From Chrysomallon squamiferum (lineage: Eukaryota; Animalia; Mollusca), in the NCBI GenBank assembly GCA_012295275.1, contig CM022676.1, positions 4,402,001 through 4,466,000 on the forward strand: a stretch of 64,000 bases of DNA. The letters are read 5' to 3'. Numbering within the stretch: the stretch's first letter is position 1; each line of letters begins with the position of its first letter. Both the position numbers and the translations under genes were made by a program. Below, piece after piece: positions 6,147-53,892 of the stretch. The notes under the pieces were generated by a model, which worked only from the letters and a program-made list of their open reading frames with translations, had not been told where the DNA came from and did not search any database.

Positions 6147-6458
6147 CTCTCACTTCCAGTTTTATTTCATTGCTGCCTGGTTTAAAATCACCACATCTCC
6201 ACACTGTTCCATGTTGACTGAGTTTCACTGATTTTATTGTCAGAGTGTTAATACCATTTGAACAGTTAAAAGTGTATTCTTCTGGATGTTCATTATGAAA
6301 ATGACACTGACCGTGTCCATCTCGATCACTCATCCTGTATATTGTGTTATTCTCAAACCAACTTTTTACAAAAAAATGAAAATCACTCTGGCAGGTAAAA
6401 GTGAAAGGTGATCCACAAATTGCATATCTGTTTGATGTTGTTAAATTGTAATACAGAC
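6147..6458 (-). CDS. Copy A Ig1 exon (V-like domain)
   Basis: 312 nt, open, tag|...|gtaaaa; FTFTC..W..LTIKSV..HGTVWRC..IKLEVR Ig pattern. Confidence 0.88.
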
Positions 6459-7236
6459 CTAAAATTTAAAATAATAAAAACAAAAATCCAAATAAAATTA
6501 AATACATTATTTATAATTACATTCTTGTTATGTTTTTGTGTTATTTTCATTAATTTATTTAATTACTATTAATTTATACTTTATTTTCATTAATTTATTT
6601 ATTTATTATTTATTTATAGTTTATTCCATAATTATGTTACATTACGTTACGTTACTTTACACTTTGTTATGAACCGTCATGTTGTTATGTTATGTTATGT
6701 TGTCCCATGTTTTAATACAGATATGTTTGAAAAATTCAAATCACACAATTACGAATATATTTTTTACATTAGTCAACGAAACATAACTTCGACTCAATTT
6801 AGATTTCACAGTTTGTAAATTAATTGAACGCAGATACAGAAAAATGGTTCCCTTTCAAAACACAGAGATACAGCCTATAATGTAGCCACGCCATTTCATA
6901 GACAAAACTCTTTATTGGGTCATTTATCCTGTACACCCCTGACTGCTTTAATGGTATGCTCCAGTCTGTTCATTCAAGCAACAACGAGAGCCTATTTCCT
7001 ATCTGGCAAATGCAATTAATAAATCTACAAATAAATGTATAAATAAATATAATTTTATATAATTTTGTATTGAGTTCTGTATTTAGTTGTACCAGACTAT
7101 TCCATAATTTATTACATGTATTATTCAAGGTAAACGGCGGGTAATTAGTAAATGCACTCAACCGTGTCTTCTGTTGTTTATGCTAGACTATTCTATATGA
7201 GAAGCCTGTCATTTGGGACGAATATAAAATACATAC

Positions 7237-7294
7237 CTTGTACGTAAATTACAGATCCCAGCAACACGAACACACAGAATAACTTACAACTCAT
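7237..7294 (-). CDS. Copy A exon 1, signal peptide MSCKLFCVFVLLGSVIYVQ(G)
   Basis: ATG, hydrophobic 19 codons plus 1 nt, donor CAAG|GTATGT; phase 1 matches the next exon. Confidence 0.85.
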
Positions 7295-7438
7295 TTCCAG
7301 TGTTTTAGTTTTAACTGCCGTTAATAAAAATATTGTTACTTTCTTTTCTTGACTTCTTTTTAGATTTTACTGCTGCTAATGTAAAACCAGTTTTCGACGC
7401 CTTCTTCTTGTACTTTATTCTGGTAACTTATGACGTTT

Positions 7439-7482
7439 ACTTCCTGTGTCAAACATAACGTGACCAAAAGTCTCATTGGCTC
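7439..7482 (-). promoter_or_regulatory. Putative proximal promoter of copy A: CCAAT box plus ETS-type CAGGAAGT
   Basis: AGCCAATGAG and ACAGGAAGT lie about 150-190 bp upstream of the leader ATG and recur before other leaders (about 36093-36134, 47281-47322, 52930-52973). Confidence 0.45.
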
Positions 7483-8195
7483 TGCATATTTATTAATAAA
7501 CTAAATCCACTCGATTGAATCAGAAAAAATACCTAATGCAGCCTTAAATATAACATACAGAGTTGTATTTTGAATAGTTAATTCTTCTTCGTAGGTTATT
7601 TCTTCTTCTTCTTCTTCGTTTTCTTTTTATTTTCTTTAATTTTTTTTGTATTTATTTATACTTTTGGTTAATTTATTTTATTTATTTATTTTTTTTGTAT
7701 TTATCTACGTTTATAAGTATGTTGAAGGTATTTTACCTTACAGGTGTATGTATTTCGGTATTTGCATTTATACATATATGTAAATATACATGTAGTTAAG
7801 TACGTATATTTATATGTATATATCTCTATATGTATATATGTATGAATGTGTGTATATGTGTGTGTTTACATATATATATATGTGTGTGTGTGCGTGTATG
7901 TCTGTGTTTACATATATATACATATATACACAAACATACTTGCACACACACATATATGTAATGTTAAAATATATATATATATATAGATATATATAGCATG
8001 TACATATGTTGTATATCATATTTATGAGCGTAGGCAGGTAGGTGGTATATGTGCATGTTCGGGTATCAGTGTATGCTTGTATAGCTGTATACATACATAC
8101 CTATATATATGTGTGTGTGTGTGTGTGTATGTGTGTGTGTAAGTAAGTGTGCGTGTGCATTTTTAGTAATTAGAAATCTTTGCTGCATAGATAAA

Positions 8196-8232
8196 GGGCG
8201 GCCATTTTGAATTGTGGCGTAACCTAGGCAAC
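8196..8232. promoter_or_regulatory. Recurrent upstream element with YY1-like GGCCATTTT and RFX X-box-like GTAACCTAGGCAAC
   Basis: GC-rich block about 0.9 kb upstream of leaders. Copies near 14445, 23140, 26100, 35370, 39470, 42680, 44735, 45430, 48015, 49380 and 52260. Confidence 0.4.
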
Positions 8233-51029: not shown

Positions 51030-51273
51030 TAGTCATAAAAAAAGTTCACAGGGAAAATAAGATAAGTTCAAATTTTATAACATGAGTCTATTTTGTCATC
51101 TACTAATATACTAAAACACGTGTCACTTTTTTATATTATTATAACAGTTCCTGAAGTAAATGAAAATGAAAATTTTTTAAAAATAAAATCGCCTGAATTA
51201 GTACCTGCGGCCCAACTGAGGATGAGTCTTGTCTCATGTGGCCAGCTTGTTGAAAAAAGCTTGCCCATTCCTG
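51030..51273. mobile_element. Third, inverted and partly deleted copy of the hAT-like MITE
   Basis: Reverse complement of the 24115 element, with the same flank. Confidence 0.55.
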
Positions 51274-51613
51274 AACTAAAACATTGTCAATAATTCATAG
51301 CATTATTACATAAATGTATGCTAATACCACTAACGTTAAATAATAATAATAAAAATCTCAAAGTATAATCAGTTTCGTGTAGACTGTCTTTTCGTAGACT
51401 GCAGAAGTCAGTCGATTGAACCCAGTCTATTACAGATTACAGTCTATTACAGTCTATTTTACAAAGAATATAAAGGGTGTTTTACTTACGAAACAGAAAA
51501 TAAACGTGGTGACGCATCAACAGGAAAGAAAACAAGGAAGAATTTAAAACAGAAAAACGTAGCTAAGACAGTATATATTTTCATTAACGACAGTGAAAAC
51601 TAAAATACTGGAA

Positions 51614-51662
51614 ATGAGTTGTAAGTTATTCGTGTTACTGGGGTGTGTATTGTACGTACAAG
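51614..51662 (+). other. Short-type leader exon upstream of copy E with a GC donor
   Basis: MSCKLFVLLGCVLYVQ(G)|GCATGT; paralogs have GTATGT. Confidence 0.62.
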
Positions 51663-53116
51663 GCATGTATTTTATATTCAAATTATTTATCTCTATCTGA
51701 GTTAGTCTCGTTTCATTTACCAAATGTGGAGTCGACGTCATTTGTGGATGACTAATGGTAATAACTGTGCAACATGAAGTCTTGAAATATATTTATCAAA
51801 ATATGAAACCATAACATAAAATAACATAACACAGGATAACATAATGTATCGTAATATGACAGTACATTACACAGAATAACGTAACGCAATGTAACATAAT
51901 GTAATACAATATAAAAATATGTAATAAAGTAAGCATAATAATAATAACAAAACAACAACAATAATAACACACAGACACACACACACACACACACACACAC
52001 ACACACACACACACACACACACACACACACACACACACACACACACACACACACACACACACGTATAAACTGAACACAATAGAAAGAGTATGCTACTCAA
52101 TGACTTGACAGAAAGAGTATTAGGTGTTTTGGGTTACATTTTTTGTTCGTCTTTTTCCATGCATGGCTGGTTTTAAACTGAGTGGTAGAGTTACAACATA
52201 CAACAACAAAACTAACCAAGTCATGTCATGACGTAAGAAACAAAACTTGGCAAAAATCCCTGTTCCCTAGGTTACGCCACAATTCTGCAGCAAAGATTTC
52301 TAATTATTAAAATATGCAGACGCACACTTACTTACACACACACGCGCACACACACATATGTATATGTATGTATATATGTATGTATACACACACAAGCATA
52401 GATTGATACCCGAACATACATACATACACATATACAACCTACCTGCATAATATATATATATATATATATATATATATATATATATATTTAAACATTACAT
52501 ATATGTGTGTGTCTGTCTGCGTGTATGTTTGTTTATATATGTTTATATGTATGTAAACACACACGTATACACACTTACATACATATATACATATACAGAA
52601 ATATACATACGTACATATATACTTAACTACATGTCTATGTATATATCTGTATAAATGCAAATATGGAAATACATACACCTGTAAGATAGAACACCTTCAC
52701 ACACACTTATAAACGTACATAAATACACTCGGACATCAATAATAATAATTAAAAAACTAGTAATAAAAGAAAAGAAAAGAAAATAAAAGAAAAAGAAAAC
52801 GAAGAAGAAGAAAACACATTCTAAGCAGAATTAACTATTCAAAATACAACGCTGTATGTTATATCTCAGGTTGCATTATGTATTTTTCTGATTCAGTCGA
52901 GTGGATTTAGTTTATTAATAAATATGCAGAGCCAATGAGACTTTTGGTCACGTTTTGTTTCACACAGGAAGTAAACCTCATAAGTTACCAGAATAAAGTA
53001 CAACAAGAAGACGTCGAAAACTGCTTTTACATTAACAGCAGTAAAATCGAGAAAGCAGTGAAGAAAAGACAGTAACTATATTTTTATAAATGGCAGTTAA
53101 AACTAAAACACTGGAA

Positions 53117-53158
53117 ATGAGTTGTAAGTTATTCTGTGTGTTCGTGTCTGCACTATAG
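53117..53158 (+). pseudogene. Copy E proximal leader, truncated by a deletion
   Basis: MSCKLFCVFV joins directly to intron sequence and reaches TAG; donor lost. Confidence 0.72.
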
Positions 53159-53580
53159 GCTATCTGTCTGTCTTTTGAGAGGGAACCATTTATCTGTACC
53201 TGAGTTCATTTCATTTACTTACTGTGAAATCTATACTCAGTCGAAGTTATGTTTCATTGACTAATGTAAAATGTATATGCGTAATTGTGTGATTTGAATT
53301 TTTGAAACATATCTGTATTAAAACATGAGACAATAATATAACATAACATAACATAACATTAGGATATGAGAGTCCATAACATGGCGTATCGTATTAATGT
53401 AACATAATGTAATAAAACGTAAAGTATAATAATAATACTAATACTACTAATACTACTACTAATAATATATAAATAAATAAATTAAAAATTAAAAATAACA
53501 CAAAACTTAACAAGAATGTATTTATAAAATATGTATTTTATATTATTATATTTTATTTGTTTTATTATTTTAAATTGAAG

Positions 53581-53892
53581 GTCAGTATCACAGTTTAACA
53601 ACATCAGAGAAATATGCAATTGTTGGATCACCTTTTACTTTTACCTGTCGAGGAGTTCCTGCTCCTCTGATTATCTGGTTTGAGAATAACACAGAATACA
53701 TGTTGGCTGTTGTAGTAGGAAGATACGGTCTGTGTTATTTTTGGGATGAACATCCAGAAGAATACACTTTTAAGTGTTCAAATGGTATTAACACTCTGAC
53801 AATAAAATCTGTGAAACTCAGTCAACATGGAACAGTGTGGAGATGTGGTGATTTTAAACCAGGCAGCAATGAAATAAAACTGGAAGTGAGAG
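53581..53892 (+). CDS. Copy E Ig1 exon (V-like)
   Basis: 312 nt, open; GQYHSLTTSEKYAIVGSPFTFTCRGVPAPLIIWFEN...WRCGDFKPGSNEIKLEVR. Confidence 0.88.

Follow-up and report, generated by a model that had tools for sequence, protein, structure and literature searches.

A tandem cluster of broken five-Ig receptor genes in Chrysomallon squamiferum, with binding loops probably kept divergent by selection

The stretch of Chrysomallon squamiferum DNA analysed here (64,000 nucleotides, hereinafter the window) contains five tandem copies (A to E) of a snail five-Ig cell-surface gene with the plan signal peptide (SP)–V–Ig–V–Ig–Ig–TM–tail and ITAM-consensus exons in the tail. The N-terminal V-type domain (Ig1) combines a near-constant framework with three divergent patches, and we consider it probable that the binding loops of these paralogs are kept divergent by selection, with gene conversion likely homogenising and shuffling the frameworks. 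They are likely members of a so far unstudied family of immune-type recognition receptors that is diversified in the germline. Their layout is as follows.

409..7294 (-): copy A gene, SP exon 7294-7237
6458-6147 (-): copy A Ig1 exon, V-type, 312 nt
5808-5544 (-): copy A Ig2, 265 nt, three small insertions, stop at aa 159
5276-4965 (-): copy A Ig3, one Cys lost
4664-4404, 4110-3832, 2239-2123 (-): copy A Ig4, Ig5 and TM
1509-1479, 1212-1127 (ITAM and ITIM consensus), 513-409 (ITAM) (-): copy A tail exons
11312..13413 (-): copy B pseudogene, SP exon 13413-13356
13051-12741 (-): copy B Ig1, the fifth Ig1 exon, 1-nt deletion (frameshift) and in-frame stop
near 12345-12408 (-): copy B Ig2 remnant, Ig3-Ig5 absent
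11724-11608, 11416-11312 (-): copy B TM and tail exon
16446..22324 (-): copy C gene, SP exon 22324-22267
21195-20881 (-): copy C Ig1 exon, 315 nt
20294-20034, 19776-19465, 19178-18918 (-): copy C Ig2, Ig3 and Ig4
18714-18407 (-): copy C Ig5 joined to what is left of the TM exon (TM deleted), with a stop at aa 529
17711-17681, 17398-17313 (ITIM), 16550-16446 (ITAM) (-): copy C tail exons
30541..38781 (-): copy D pieces, SP exon 38781-38725, 57 nt, out of phase
37981-37679 (-): copy D Ig1 exon, 303 nt
37383-37123 (-): copy D Ig2, then partial, frameshifted Ig3 up to a 200-N gap at 36487-36686
33668-33408, 33066-32777, 32404-32288 (-): copy D Ig4, Ig5 (acceptor AT, 290 nt) and TM, then tail exons
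51614..60480 (+): copy E gene, nearest SP exon (53117) without a donor
51614-51662 (+): copy E upstream SP exon, GC donor
53581-53892 (+): copy E Ig1 exon, 312 nt
54766-55026, 55879-56139 (+): copy E Ig2 and Ig4
55294-55605 (+): copy E Ig3, the second V-type domain
56425-56701 (+): copy E Ig5, 277 nt, frameshift that puts TM out of frame
57065-57181 (+): copy E TM
57862-57892, 58167-58252 (ITIM), 58809-58913 (ITAM), 59861-59965 (ITAM) (+): copy E tail exons
from 60426 (+): copy E last exon

As assembled, none of the five copies encodes a full-length membrane receptor, each of A, B, C, D and E carrying lesions. Copy C, with its TM deleted, could give a secreted product, and the halves of copy D, where an inverted upstream-type segment lies between the gap and Ig4, may be different genes. 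Transcripts that skip Ig2 in copy A or Ig5 in copy E would stay in frame and could thereby rescue these two copies. SP exons are present in 12 copies in the window, compared with five Ig1 exons. When expression of the window copies was assessed in one RNA run, 0 of 25 pieces were found at 99% or more. There is a real, if minor, chance that the lesions, and possibly the mosaic exon described below, arose as errors of assembly or polishing where a multi-copy region was collapsed, and that several copies are really intact. Such errors would fit the three 1-2 nt insertions within the single Ig2 exon of copy A, the absence of its 2-nt insertion from all seven contigs covering position 5672 in four public runs (these contigs may be paralogs) and the assembly gap that cuts copy D. 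However, the large deletions (Ig2-Ig5 of B, TM of C), the stop in B and the lost donor in E are atypical of base-calling errors, and the patch differences are not errors, since they preserve the reading frame and have a counterpart in another species, Gigantopelta aegis.

The first-pass annotation had described the Ig1 framework and its divergent patches from the sequence, and every motif that it quoted was found at its position, as were the Ig1 exon lengths in copies A, C, D and E. The patches occupy the following positions.

6390-6361, 6345-6313, 6189-6175 (-): copy A, BC, C'/C'C'' and FG patches
21127-21101, 21085-21047, 20923-20909 (-): copy C, BC, C'/C'C'' and FG patches
37913-37884, 37868-37845, 37721-37707 (-): copy D, BC, C'/C'C'' and FG patches
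53649-53675, 53691-53729, 53850-53864 (+): copy E, BC, C'/C'C'' and FG patches

Variable Ig1 columns cluster beyond chance (p=5e-5, 20,000 permutations), with additional variation at the N-terminus, at C''/C''D and in the DE loop. Mean pairwise amino acid identity, calculated without copy B, is 0.71 for Ig1, 0.87 for Ig2, 0.80 for Ig3, 0.86 for Ig4 and 0.89 for Ig5; on these values Ig2 and Ig4 are indeed more uniform than Ig1, as had been noted, and Ig3 is likewise divergent. Two AlphaFold2 models of Ig1 have a V-set fold (pLDDT 89.0 and 89.9; strands 18-23, 29-34, 37-43, 51-53, 61-66, 69-74 and 85-89), and the predicted domain shows the nine strands with C' and C'', the B-F cysteines and the C-strand Trp that define this set, the two Cys (C22, C88) and the Trp being invariant across 13 sequences. 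V domains of CD8 and TCR rank first in the fold comparison (Z 12.4-12.6, rmsd 1.8-2.2, 94-97 residues; CD8 alpha, Z 12.6), whereas Pfam yields only weak Ig matches and none to V-set; prediction of an Ig1 homodimer gave a score of 0.02 (mark 0.32), which speaks neither for nor against dimerisation. Both models place the patches at BC, C'/C'C'' and FG, and the same columns vary in Gigantopelta paralogs. Thus, the proposed assignment to the BC, C'C'' and FG loops is supported, except that the second patch includes strand C' and the first extends into strand C. The in-frame indels map to BC and C'C''. The variation falls on what are predicted to be the same three loops with which antibodies contact antigen, and 'CDR-like' is apt by position, but the diversity observed is that between germline paralogs. 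We infer that the patches form a ligand-binding face.

The sole close relatives found are 'CEACAM-like' proteins of G. aegis (XP_041379697.1, XP_041346676.1, XP_041346725.1 and XP_041372833.1), with Ig1 55-59% identical, the V-Ig-V-Ig-Ig-TM order, four Cys and the ITAM kept; the window genes differ in the repeated ITAM exon and in that all copies are broken. Among the word-sharing candidates, which are the only ones scored in both homolog searches, queries of 55-182 aa gave no homolog among 3421, and the full-length search recovered, among 7988, five clusters from G. aegis plus a single weak match in fish. ESM Atlas returned generic Ig clusters for the Gigantopelta gene P0007 and, for Ig1, unnamed clusters of 102-116 aa, two of them with a few mollusc members (0.95-0.96), which are leads only. 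Variability by column in the window correlates with that in four Ig1 domains of Gigantopelta (88 columns, Spearman 0.45, p=1.4e-5; 22 of 38 vs 11 of 50 columns, Fisher p=0.0008), although Ig1 is overall no more divergent there (identity 0.70-0.82 vs 0.74-0.82 for Ig2). An expanded 'CEACAM5' orthogroup, OG0000013, is reported with 130 members in G. aegis, 101 in Chrysomallon, 103 in Bathymodiolus platifrons and 59 in Lottia; these are counts for the orthogroup rather than for the present family, of which only five close G. aegis clusters were found, and in the available text of the source 'CEACAM5' is merely named in a figure legend (PMC7895826).

The first-pass annotation attributed the patches to diversifying selection, which site models favour. 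For Ig1, M2a beats M1a (2dL 30.3, p=3e-7), also when multi-hit changes are allowed (p=0.002), and the site test remains significant without copy E (p=7.5e-5) and using two trees (p=7e-5). Columns chosen from Gigantopelta alone have an omega of 2.1 vs 0.69 under a shared synonymous rate (p=0.012). The signal in Ig3 (copies A, C and E) is cleaner than in Ig1, with few synonymous changes and an omega of 5.1 (p=0.006 against 1). Site models detected no selection in Ig2 and Ig5, omega of Ig4 is 1.06, and the C''/C''D segment by itself is not significant (omega 1.8, p=0.18). However, once the patches receive their own synonymous rate, their dN/dS is indistinguishable from 1 (omega 1.28, p=0.54, interval about 0.6-3.2; synonymous scale 7, framework omega 1.15), and the annotation's own refuting condition, a dN/dS of 1 or less in the patches, is not cleanly escaped. 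Synonymous divergence is about five times greater in the patches than in the framework (pS 0.36 vs 0.064). With multi-hit changes allowed, selection and a fast neutral patch fit equally well, four sequences being too few to tell direct positive selection with multi-nucleotide changes from old or fast neutral islands, and with both indel patches masked the multi-hit test gives p=0.16. The M-series test proposed with the annotation is significant on Ig1 but was falsely positive for 31 of 40 datasets simulated as neutral with 7.7-fold faster patches, although none of these attained the observed 30.3 (maximum 26.0). The standard PAML test can thus be fooled at such loci, and richer sampling is therefore needed before selection is claimed.

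These figures bear on an alternative that we regard as unlikely, namely that no diversifying selection is involved, the loops being free of constraint, tolerant of indels and prone to local mutation, with conversion homogenising the frameworks and the copies here being pseudogenes in decay. The patch omega and synonymous scale agree with it, as does the mimicry of the site test by neutral simulations; furthermore, codon pairs encoding the same residue differ in 8 of 42 cases in the patches vs 13 of 375 framework cases, a pattern compatible with a neutral fast patch (p 0.13-0.88) and marginal for pure selection (p 0.055-0.12). Decay may also raise omega, given that every copy is broken in the assembly. 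On the other hand, patch pN is 0.43 compared with intron differences of 0.05-0.21, so that the patches are about three times more diverged than the flanking introns, which relaxation alone does not yield. Moreover, all Ig1 indels among copies A, C, D and E are in frame, Ig3 combines a high omega with few synonymous changes, and the signal survives synonymous-rate variation (p=0.026 for M2a vs M1a in Ig1, and 0.0075). Gigantopelta varies at the same columns, though any Ig family has variable loops. Selection for divergent loops remains, in our judgement, the probable reading.

Conversion is suggested by the copy E Ig1 exon, a mosaic that is C-like to about codon 54 and then A-like (max-chi 24.8, p=0.0005, the top-scoring of 12 triplets). 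Between A and D, 93 identical nt precede FG, in which 8 of 15 nt are different, and another 27 identical nt follow; only three FG types occur in A, C, D and E, those of A, E and B being the same (0 of 15 nt different). Conversion is described as giving divergence peaks, with pseudogenes serving as donors, in the available text of PMC3924837. Such sharply bounded 15-nt islands with identical flanks, the mosaic exon, the intact in-frame Ig1 exon in four of five otherwise broken genes and the twelve SP-exon copies against five Ig1 exons would all suit a donor library from which one expressed receptor, or a small number, would be diversified by templating in somatic cells, as chicken Ig genes are by pseudogene conversion. 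We find this hardly credible: the duplicated units are entire genes, introns and tails included, and not V-only cassettes; the window contains no separate donor for any patch when up to 3 mismatches are allowed, sharing of patches being confined to A, B and E; and germline conversion accounts for the mosaic.

The tail carries the ITAM consensus YSSL-x8-YxxL in six of the nine exons examined (five of eight found by motif scan, plus the last exon of copy D, taken from translation and ending YDVI), and the same ITAM is found in three Gigantopelta genes (P0003, P0007 and P0008). The pattern Yxx[IL]x6-9Yxx[IL] that marks ITAM receptors is thus present in the cytoplasmic tail; in the window the ITAM exon is tandemly repeated, with up to three tyrosine-motif exons. 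Several known classes were considered and rejected. A rearranging Ig/TCR type is incompatible with strands A to G, including the FG loop, lying in one phase-1 exon with no separate V and J. The N-terminal V-like domain of CEACAMs lacks the B-F disulfide. With C22 and C88 invariant and the best vertebrate match 23% identical, these are not true vertebrate CEACAMs, and the database name reflects generic Ig likeness. Membership in the Hydractinia Alr family is contradicted by the five Ig exons, the lack of any Alr match among the word-sharing candidates scored and the absence of an Fn3 Pfam match in all three Gigantopelta homologs scanned, a comparison limited by the poor detection of Alr domains by Pfam. 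FREP/VIgL and VCBP types are excluded by the TM and tail exons after Ig5 and by homologs without fibrinogen, lectin or chitin-binding Pfam domains.

Under the favoured scenario, selection on what the patches bind would keep the Ig1 loops different while gene conversion would homogenise and shuffle the frameworks. Ig1 and Ig3 of intact members at other places in the genome would recognise a range of non-self ligands (surfaces of microbes or parasites), and the tail tyrosines would signal to Syk/Shark-type kinases or SHP-type phosphatases; the family would turn over by birth and death, and broken copies may remain germline conversion donors. We consider quite unlikely the alternative that selection on the loops serves self or cell-identity recognition instead of microbial ligands, through isoform-specific homophilic binding between cells of the kind shown by Hydractinia Alr1/Alr2. 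Strands C and C' are among the variable parts, and the C/C' face is the dimerisation surface of nectins and CEACAMs. Most variation, however, is held by the distal loops, as is typical of foreign-ligand binding, and solitary snails are not known to have a fusion-rejection system. The architecture and ITAM/ITIM tails resemble those of Alr genes, which form clusters with pseudogenes and bind homophilically (10.1101/2022.03.04.482883, available text), but the homolog searches found no Alr relative. A bolder version of recognition of non-self, an antibody-like convergence in a vent-snail receptor family with loops at CDR1/2/3 positions on two V domains, short conversion cassettes from broken copies (possibly somatic) and tandem ITAMs, all serving to tell bacterial symbionts from other microbes, seems to us very improbable.

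Diversified signalling V-domain receptors are known from vertebrates, Hydractinia and protochordates. Our literature search, which covered few subscription papers, found no description of such a receptor in gastropods and no study of this family's variation. The family might provide concrete candidates for microbe discrimination by molluscs, including snails that acquire bacterial symbionts from the environment.

Among the known systems, oyster CgIgIT2, which binds Vibrio and LPS, is a molluscan receptor that likewise combines five Ig domains with TM and a classic ITAM, a likeness of architecture alone; it is presented as one gene, with variable loops unmentioned in the available text (PMC11999971), and neither homolog search gave an oyster match among its word-sharing candidates. 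Hydractinia Alr genes likewise encode V-set receptors in clusters, with a single domain per exon, both ITAMs and ITIMs, numerous pseudogenes and exon shuffling but, as far as the available text goes, have 1-3 Ig domains, mostly plus an Fn3-like fold, unlike the five Ig domains without an Fn3 match seen here (10.1101/2022.03.04.482883). Amphioxus VCBPs and snail FREPs/VIgLs resemble the window family in diversified Ig domains, unstable clusters, pseudogenes and copy-number variation, according to the available text of the sources (PMC2632668; PMC11999971). They differ in their chitin-binding or fibrinogen domains, in place of which the window genes carry a TM exon followed by a signalling tail. 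The predicted Ig1 fold matches the V domains of TCR, antibodies and CD8, although there is no orthology (the best vertebrate match covers 44% of the query), and the snail V domain lies whole in one exon and has an extra C''-D cysteine pair. VCBPs and FREPs/VIgLs are secreted, and the traits seen or proposed here of activating or inhibitory tyrosine motifs, birth-and-death evolution, conversion and a selected N-terminal domain also characterise the vertebrate germline receptor clusters LILR, KIR, SIRP, CEACAM and fish NITR.

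The N-terminal Ig domain (Ig1) of the five-Ig receptor gene present in the window as tandem copies A to E, of which B is a pseudogene, combines a near-constant framework with three divergent patches. Across A, C, D and E, 58 of the 105 Ig1 columns are invariant and the variable columns are clustered (p = 5e-5). All motifs and exon lengths quoted in the first-pass annotation proved correct, and so did its statement that Ig2 and Ig4 are more uniform than Ig1: mean identity is 0.71 for Ig1, 0.87 for Ig2, 0.80 for Ig3 (three copies), 0.86 for Ig4 and 0.89 for Ig5 (first 73 codons). 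Some Ig1 variation lies outside the patches (N-terminus, C''D and DE), and the FG patch is identical in A, B and E.

AlphaFold2 models of Ig1, seeded with 13-sequence alignments, reached pLDDT 89.0 for E and 89.9 for C, with predicted strands (E numbering) B 18-23, C 29-34, C' 37-43, C'' 51-53, D, E, F 85-89 and G. The closest structures are V domains: CD8 alpha scored Z 12.6 (rmsd 1.8 over 94 aligned residues), and a chain from a TCR-superantigen entry scored Z 12.4 (rmsd 2.2 over 97); Foldseek matched antibody V domains and the top PDB sequence matches were to TCR V beta (E ~2e-4). In these models, patch 1 is the BC loop plus the start of strand C, patch 2 is C' and the C'C'' loop, the region of lowest confidence (pLDDT ~70), and patch 3 is FG. 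The BC, C'C'' and FG loops are the positions of CDR1, CDR2 and CDR3. Ig1 carries additional cysteines in C'' (invariant) and D (nearly invariant), which likely form a second disulfide. Copy A has a fifth cysteine at residue 14 (6417-6415, reverse strand), where the other copies have valine.

Diversifying selection in Ig1, as proposed earlier, is favoured by site models, but not by the patch omega estimated with its own synonymous rate. Codon models (GY94, F3x4) written for this analysis were applied to A, C, D and E, leaving out the pseudogene. For Ig1, M2a was preferred over M1a on all three topologies (best tree: 2dL = 30.3, omega ~12 at 15% of sites), and M8 over M8a on the best tree (p = 2e-8). 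The signal was also obtained when multi-hit terms were added (p = 0.002), when the sequences were aligned differently (p = 0.003), with E removed (p = 7.5e-5), with synonymous-rate variation (p = 0.026) and with the two halves on separate trees (p = 7e-5); masking both indel-bearing patches abolished the multi-hit signal (p = 0.16). In the 29 patch codons pN is 0.43 and pS 0.36; the framework has 0.082 and 0.064, and introns differ by 0.05-0.21. A better fit was obtained when the patches had a separate synonymous rate (p = 0.001, scale 7); the expected patch dN/dS above 1 was then not borne out (omega 1.28, p = 0.54, interval ~0.6-3.2), with the reservation that the patches were delimited post hoc, a choice that gives an advantage to either type of partition model. 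Once multi-hit terms were included, the models 'omega 6.5, shared rate' and 'omega 1, fast patch' were equal in fit, and a same-residue statistic did not separate selection from neutral fast-patch models; 31 of 40 neutral fast-patch simulations passed the M2a test, none reaching the observed value. The four sequences thus show patches whose divergence is roughly three times that of introns and which are not under strong purifying selection; diversifying selection as the cause is likely, not proven.

The selection signal is cleaner in Ig3 (omega 5.1; p = 0.006 versus 1, p = 0.0013 with multi-hit terms), where the 29 changed codons are replacements almost throughout. It is marginal in Ig4 (p = 0.021), and the site models gave none in Ig2 and Ig5. 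Ig3 (exons 55294-55605, 19465-19776 and 4965-5276) is a homolog of Ig1 with 34-36% identity.

There are also signs of gene conversion. Copy E is a mosaic, C-like to about codon 54 and A-like thereafter (max-chi 24.8, p = 0.0005); of the 12 triplets tested, this one gave the strongest signal and six in all had p < 0.01. A and D share an identical 93-nt stretch, followed by 15 nt of FG with 8 differences and then a further 27 identical nt, and framework pS is lower than the divergence of the introns flanking Ig1. Conversion would homogenise the frameworks, while selection on the patches would resist it, leaving divergence peaks. PMC3924837 describes such peaks where selection resists conversion, as well as the retention of pseudogenes as donors in MHC and R-gene clusters. 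Selection resisting conversion appears to fit the data best; it requires selection, but not a local omega far above 1.

Self-comparison of the window, which has ~30% GC, many microsatellites and a single 200-N gap (36487-36686), revealed one multi-exon gene forming a tandem and inverted array. Exon mapping gave the order signal peptide (58 nt), Ig1 to Ig5, a transmembrane (TM) exon of 117 nt and short tail exons, every Ig exon being in phase 1-1. In total, five Ig1 exons (A-E) and 12 signal-peptide exons were mapped. Signal-peptide exons accompanied by upstream DNA and lacking their own Ig exon occur at 23725-27993, 36279-36336, 41883-47136 and 51614-51662; three copies have a 9-nt in-frame deletion. 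These extra exons could serve as alternative first exons or be duplicated promoters. An inverted 2.7-kb copy of the region upstream of A (33874-36486, 92% identity) adjoins the gap and splits D, possibly a misjoin or a real inversion. Directly downstream of Ig1 in E (53865-54447, forward strand, 5.6 copies) and C (20603-20908, reverse strand, 3.6 copies), and not in A, B or D, 85-86 nt tandem repeats contain the last Ig1 codons and splice donor. Upstream of C's Ig1, a 298-nt duplication (21188-21789, reverse strand) carries a truncated Ig1 exon start with intact AG acceptor, its first codons closer to E than to C.

As assembled, every copy is impaired. Ig2 frameshifts in A lead to a stop at residue 159; B carries a frameshift plus a stop, and its Ig3-Ig5 are missing; the TM exon is gone from C; in D the nearest signal exon is out of phase, Ig3 is frameshifted and ends at the gap, and the Ig5 acceptor is AT; in E the nearest signal exon lacks a donor and Ig5 is frameshifted. 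Skipping A's Ig2 or E's Ig5 is predicted to leave the reading frame open through TM and tail, and some annotated Gigantopelta forms lack domains. A 2-nt insertion in A is absent from all seven contigs covering place 5672, which may be paralogs, so the insertion may or may not be an assembly error. The working members of the family are probably not among these copies.

Of 7996 scored candidate proteins, four matched a profile built from the four Ig1 domains, and each of them came from the vent snail Gigantopelta aegis (55-59% identity); a search with the full-length sequence brought one further G. aegis protein and a fish match at 23%. The G. aegis homologs share domain order, cysteines and tail motif with the window genes. 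The same Ig1 columns vary in the four Gigantopelta domains (rho 0.45, p = 1.4e-5), in which overall divergence of Ig1 equals that of Ig2. Judged by eye, two BC-loop types seem present in both snails, Pro-x-Pro (C, E and the G. aegis homolog P0001) and x-Phe/Tyr (A, B, D and P0002-P0004), which could represent old common lineages or convergence:
53649-53675 and 37884-37913: BC patch in the comparison of BC-loop types
A figure legend of PMC7895826 names 'CEACAM5' among expanded immune families; its source table lists 130 such genes for G. aegis and 101 for Chrysomallon, which may not include the window subfamily, and a table taken as the oesophageal-gland list has four 'CEACAM5-like' rows (log2FC 3.1-4.7) that may not belong to it. 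Four public runs gave 740, 527, 548 and 25 contig pieces that matched a 1551-base stretch of copy A at at least 80%, and one variant at one place was common to up to 29 contigs, indicating many more sequence variants than the window's five. None of the 25 pieces from the RNA run matched copy A at at least 99%.

By the consensus definitions of 10.1101/2022.03.04.482883, the tyrosine motif ITAM occurs in five of eight scanned tail exons (six if valine is allowed) and ITIM in three. The last exon of D reads YSSL-x8-YDVI, and YSSL-x8-YEGL is kept in three Gigantopelta genes; this conservation in both snails argues for a functional tail motif, through which we infer kinase binding. The tail exons (58167-59965, 409-1212, 16446-17398) arose by serial duplication of a single tyrosine-motif exon. 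In the first tail-exon copy of C and E, His replaces the first Tyr, leaving ITIM only, whereas A has both tyrosines, so that a single-base change switches the exon between ITAM-like and ITIM-only.

By the membership tests, the family does not belong to the true CEACAMs, the FREPs/VCBPs (PMC2632668), Alr or the rearranging receptors, and a literature search found no study on variation in this receptor family. The patterned Ig1 variation is a real feature; the family's mode of working resembles that of germline receptor clusters such as Alr and the LILR/KIR/SIRP type, and its architecture is identical to that of oyster CgIgIT2 as outlined in PMC11999971.
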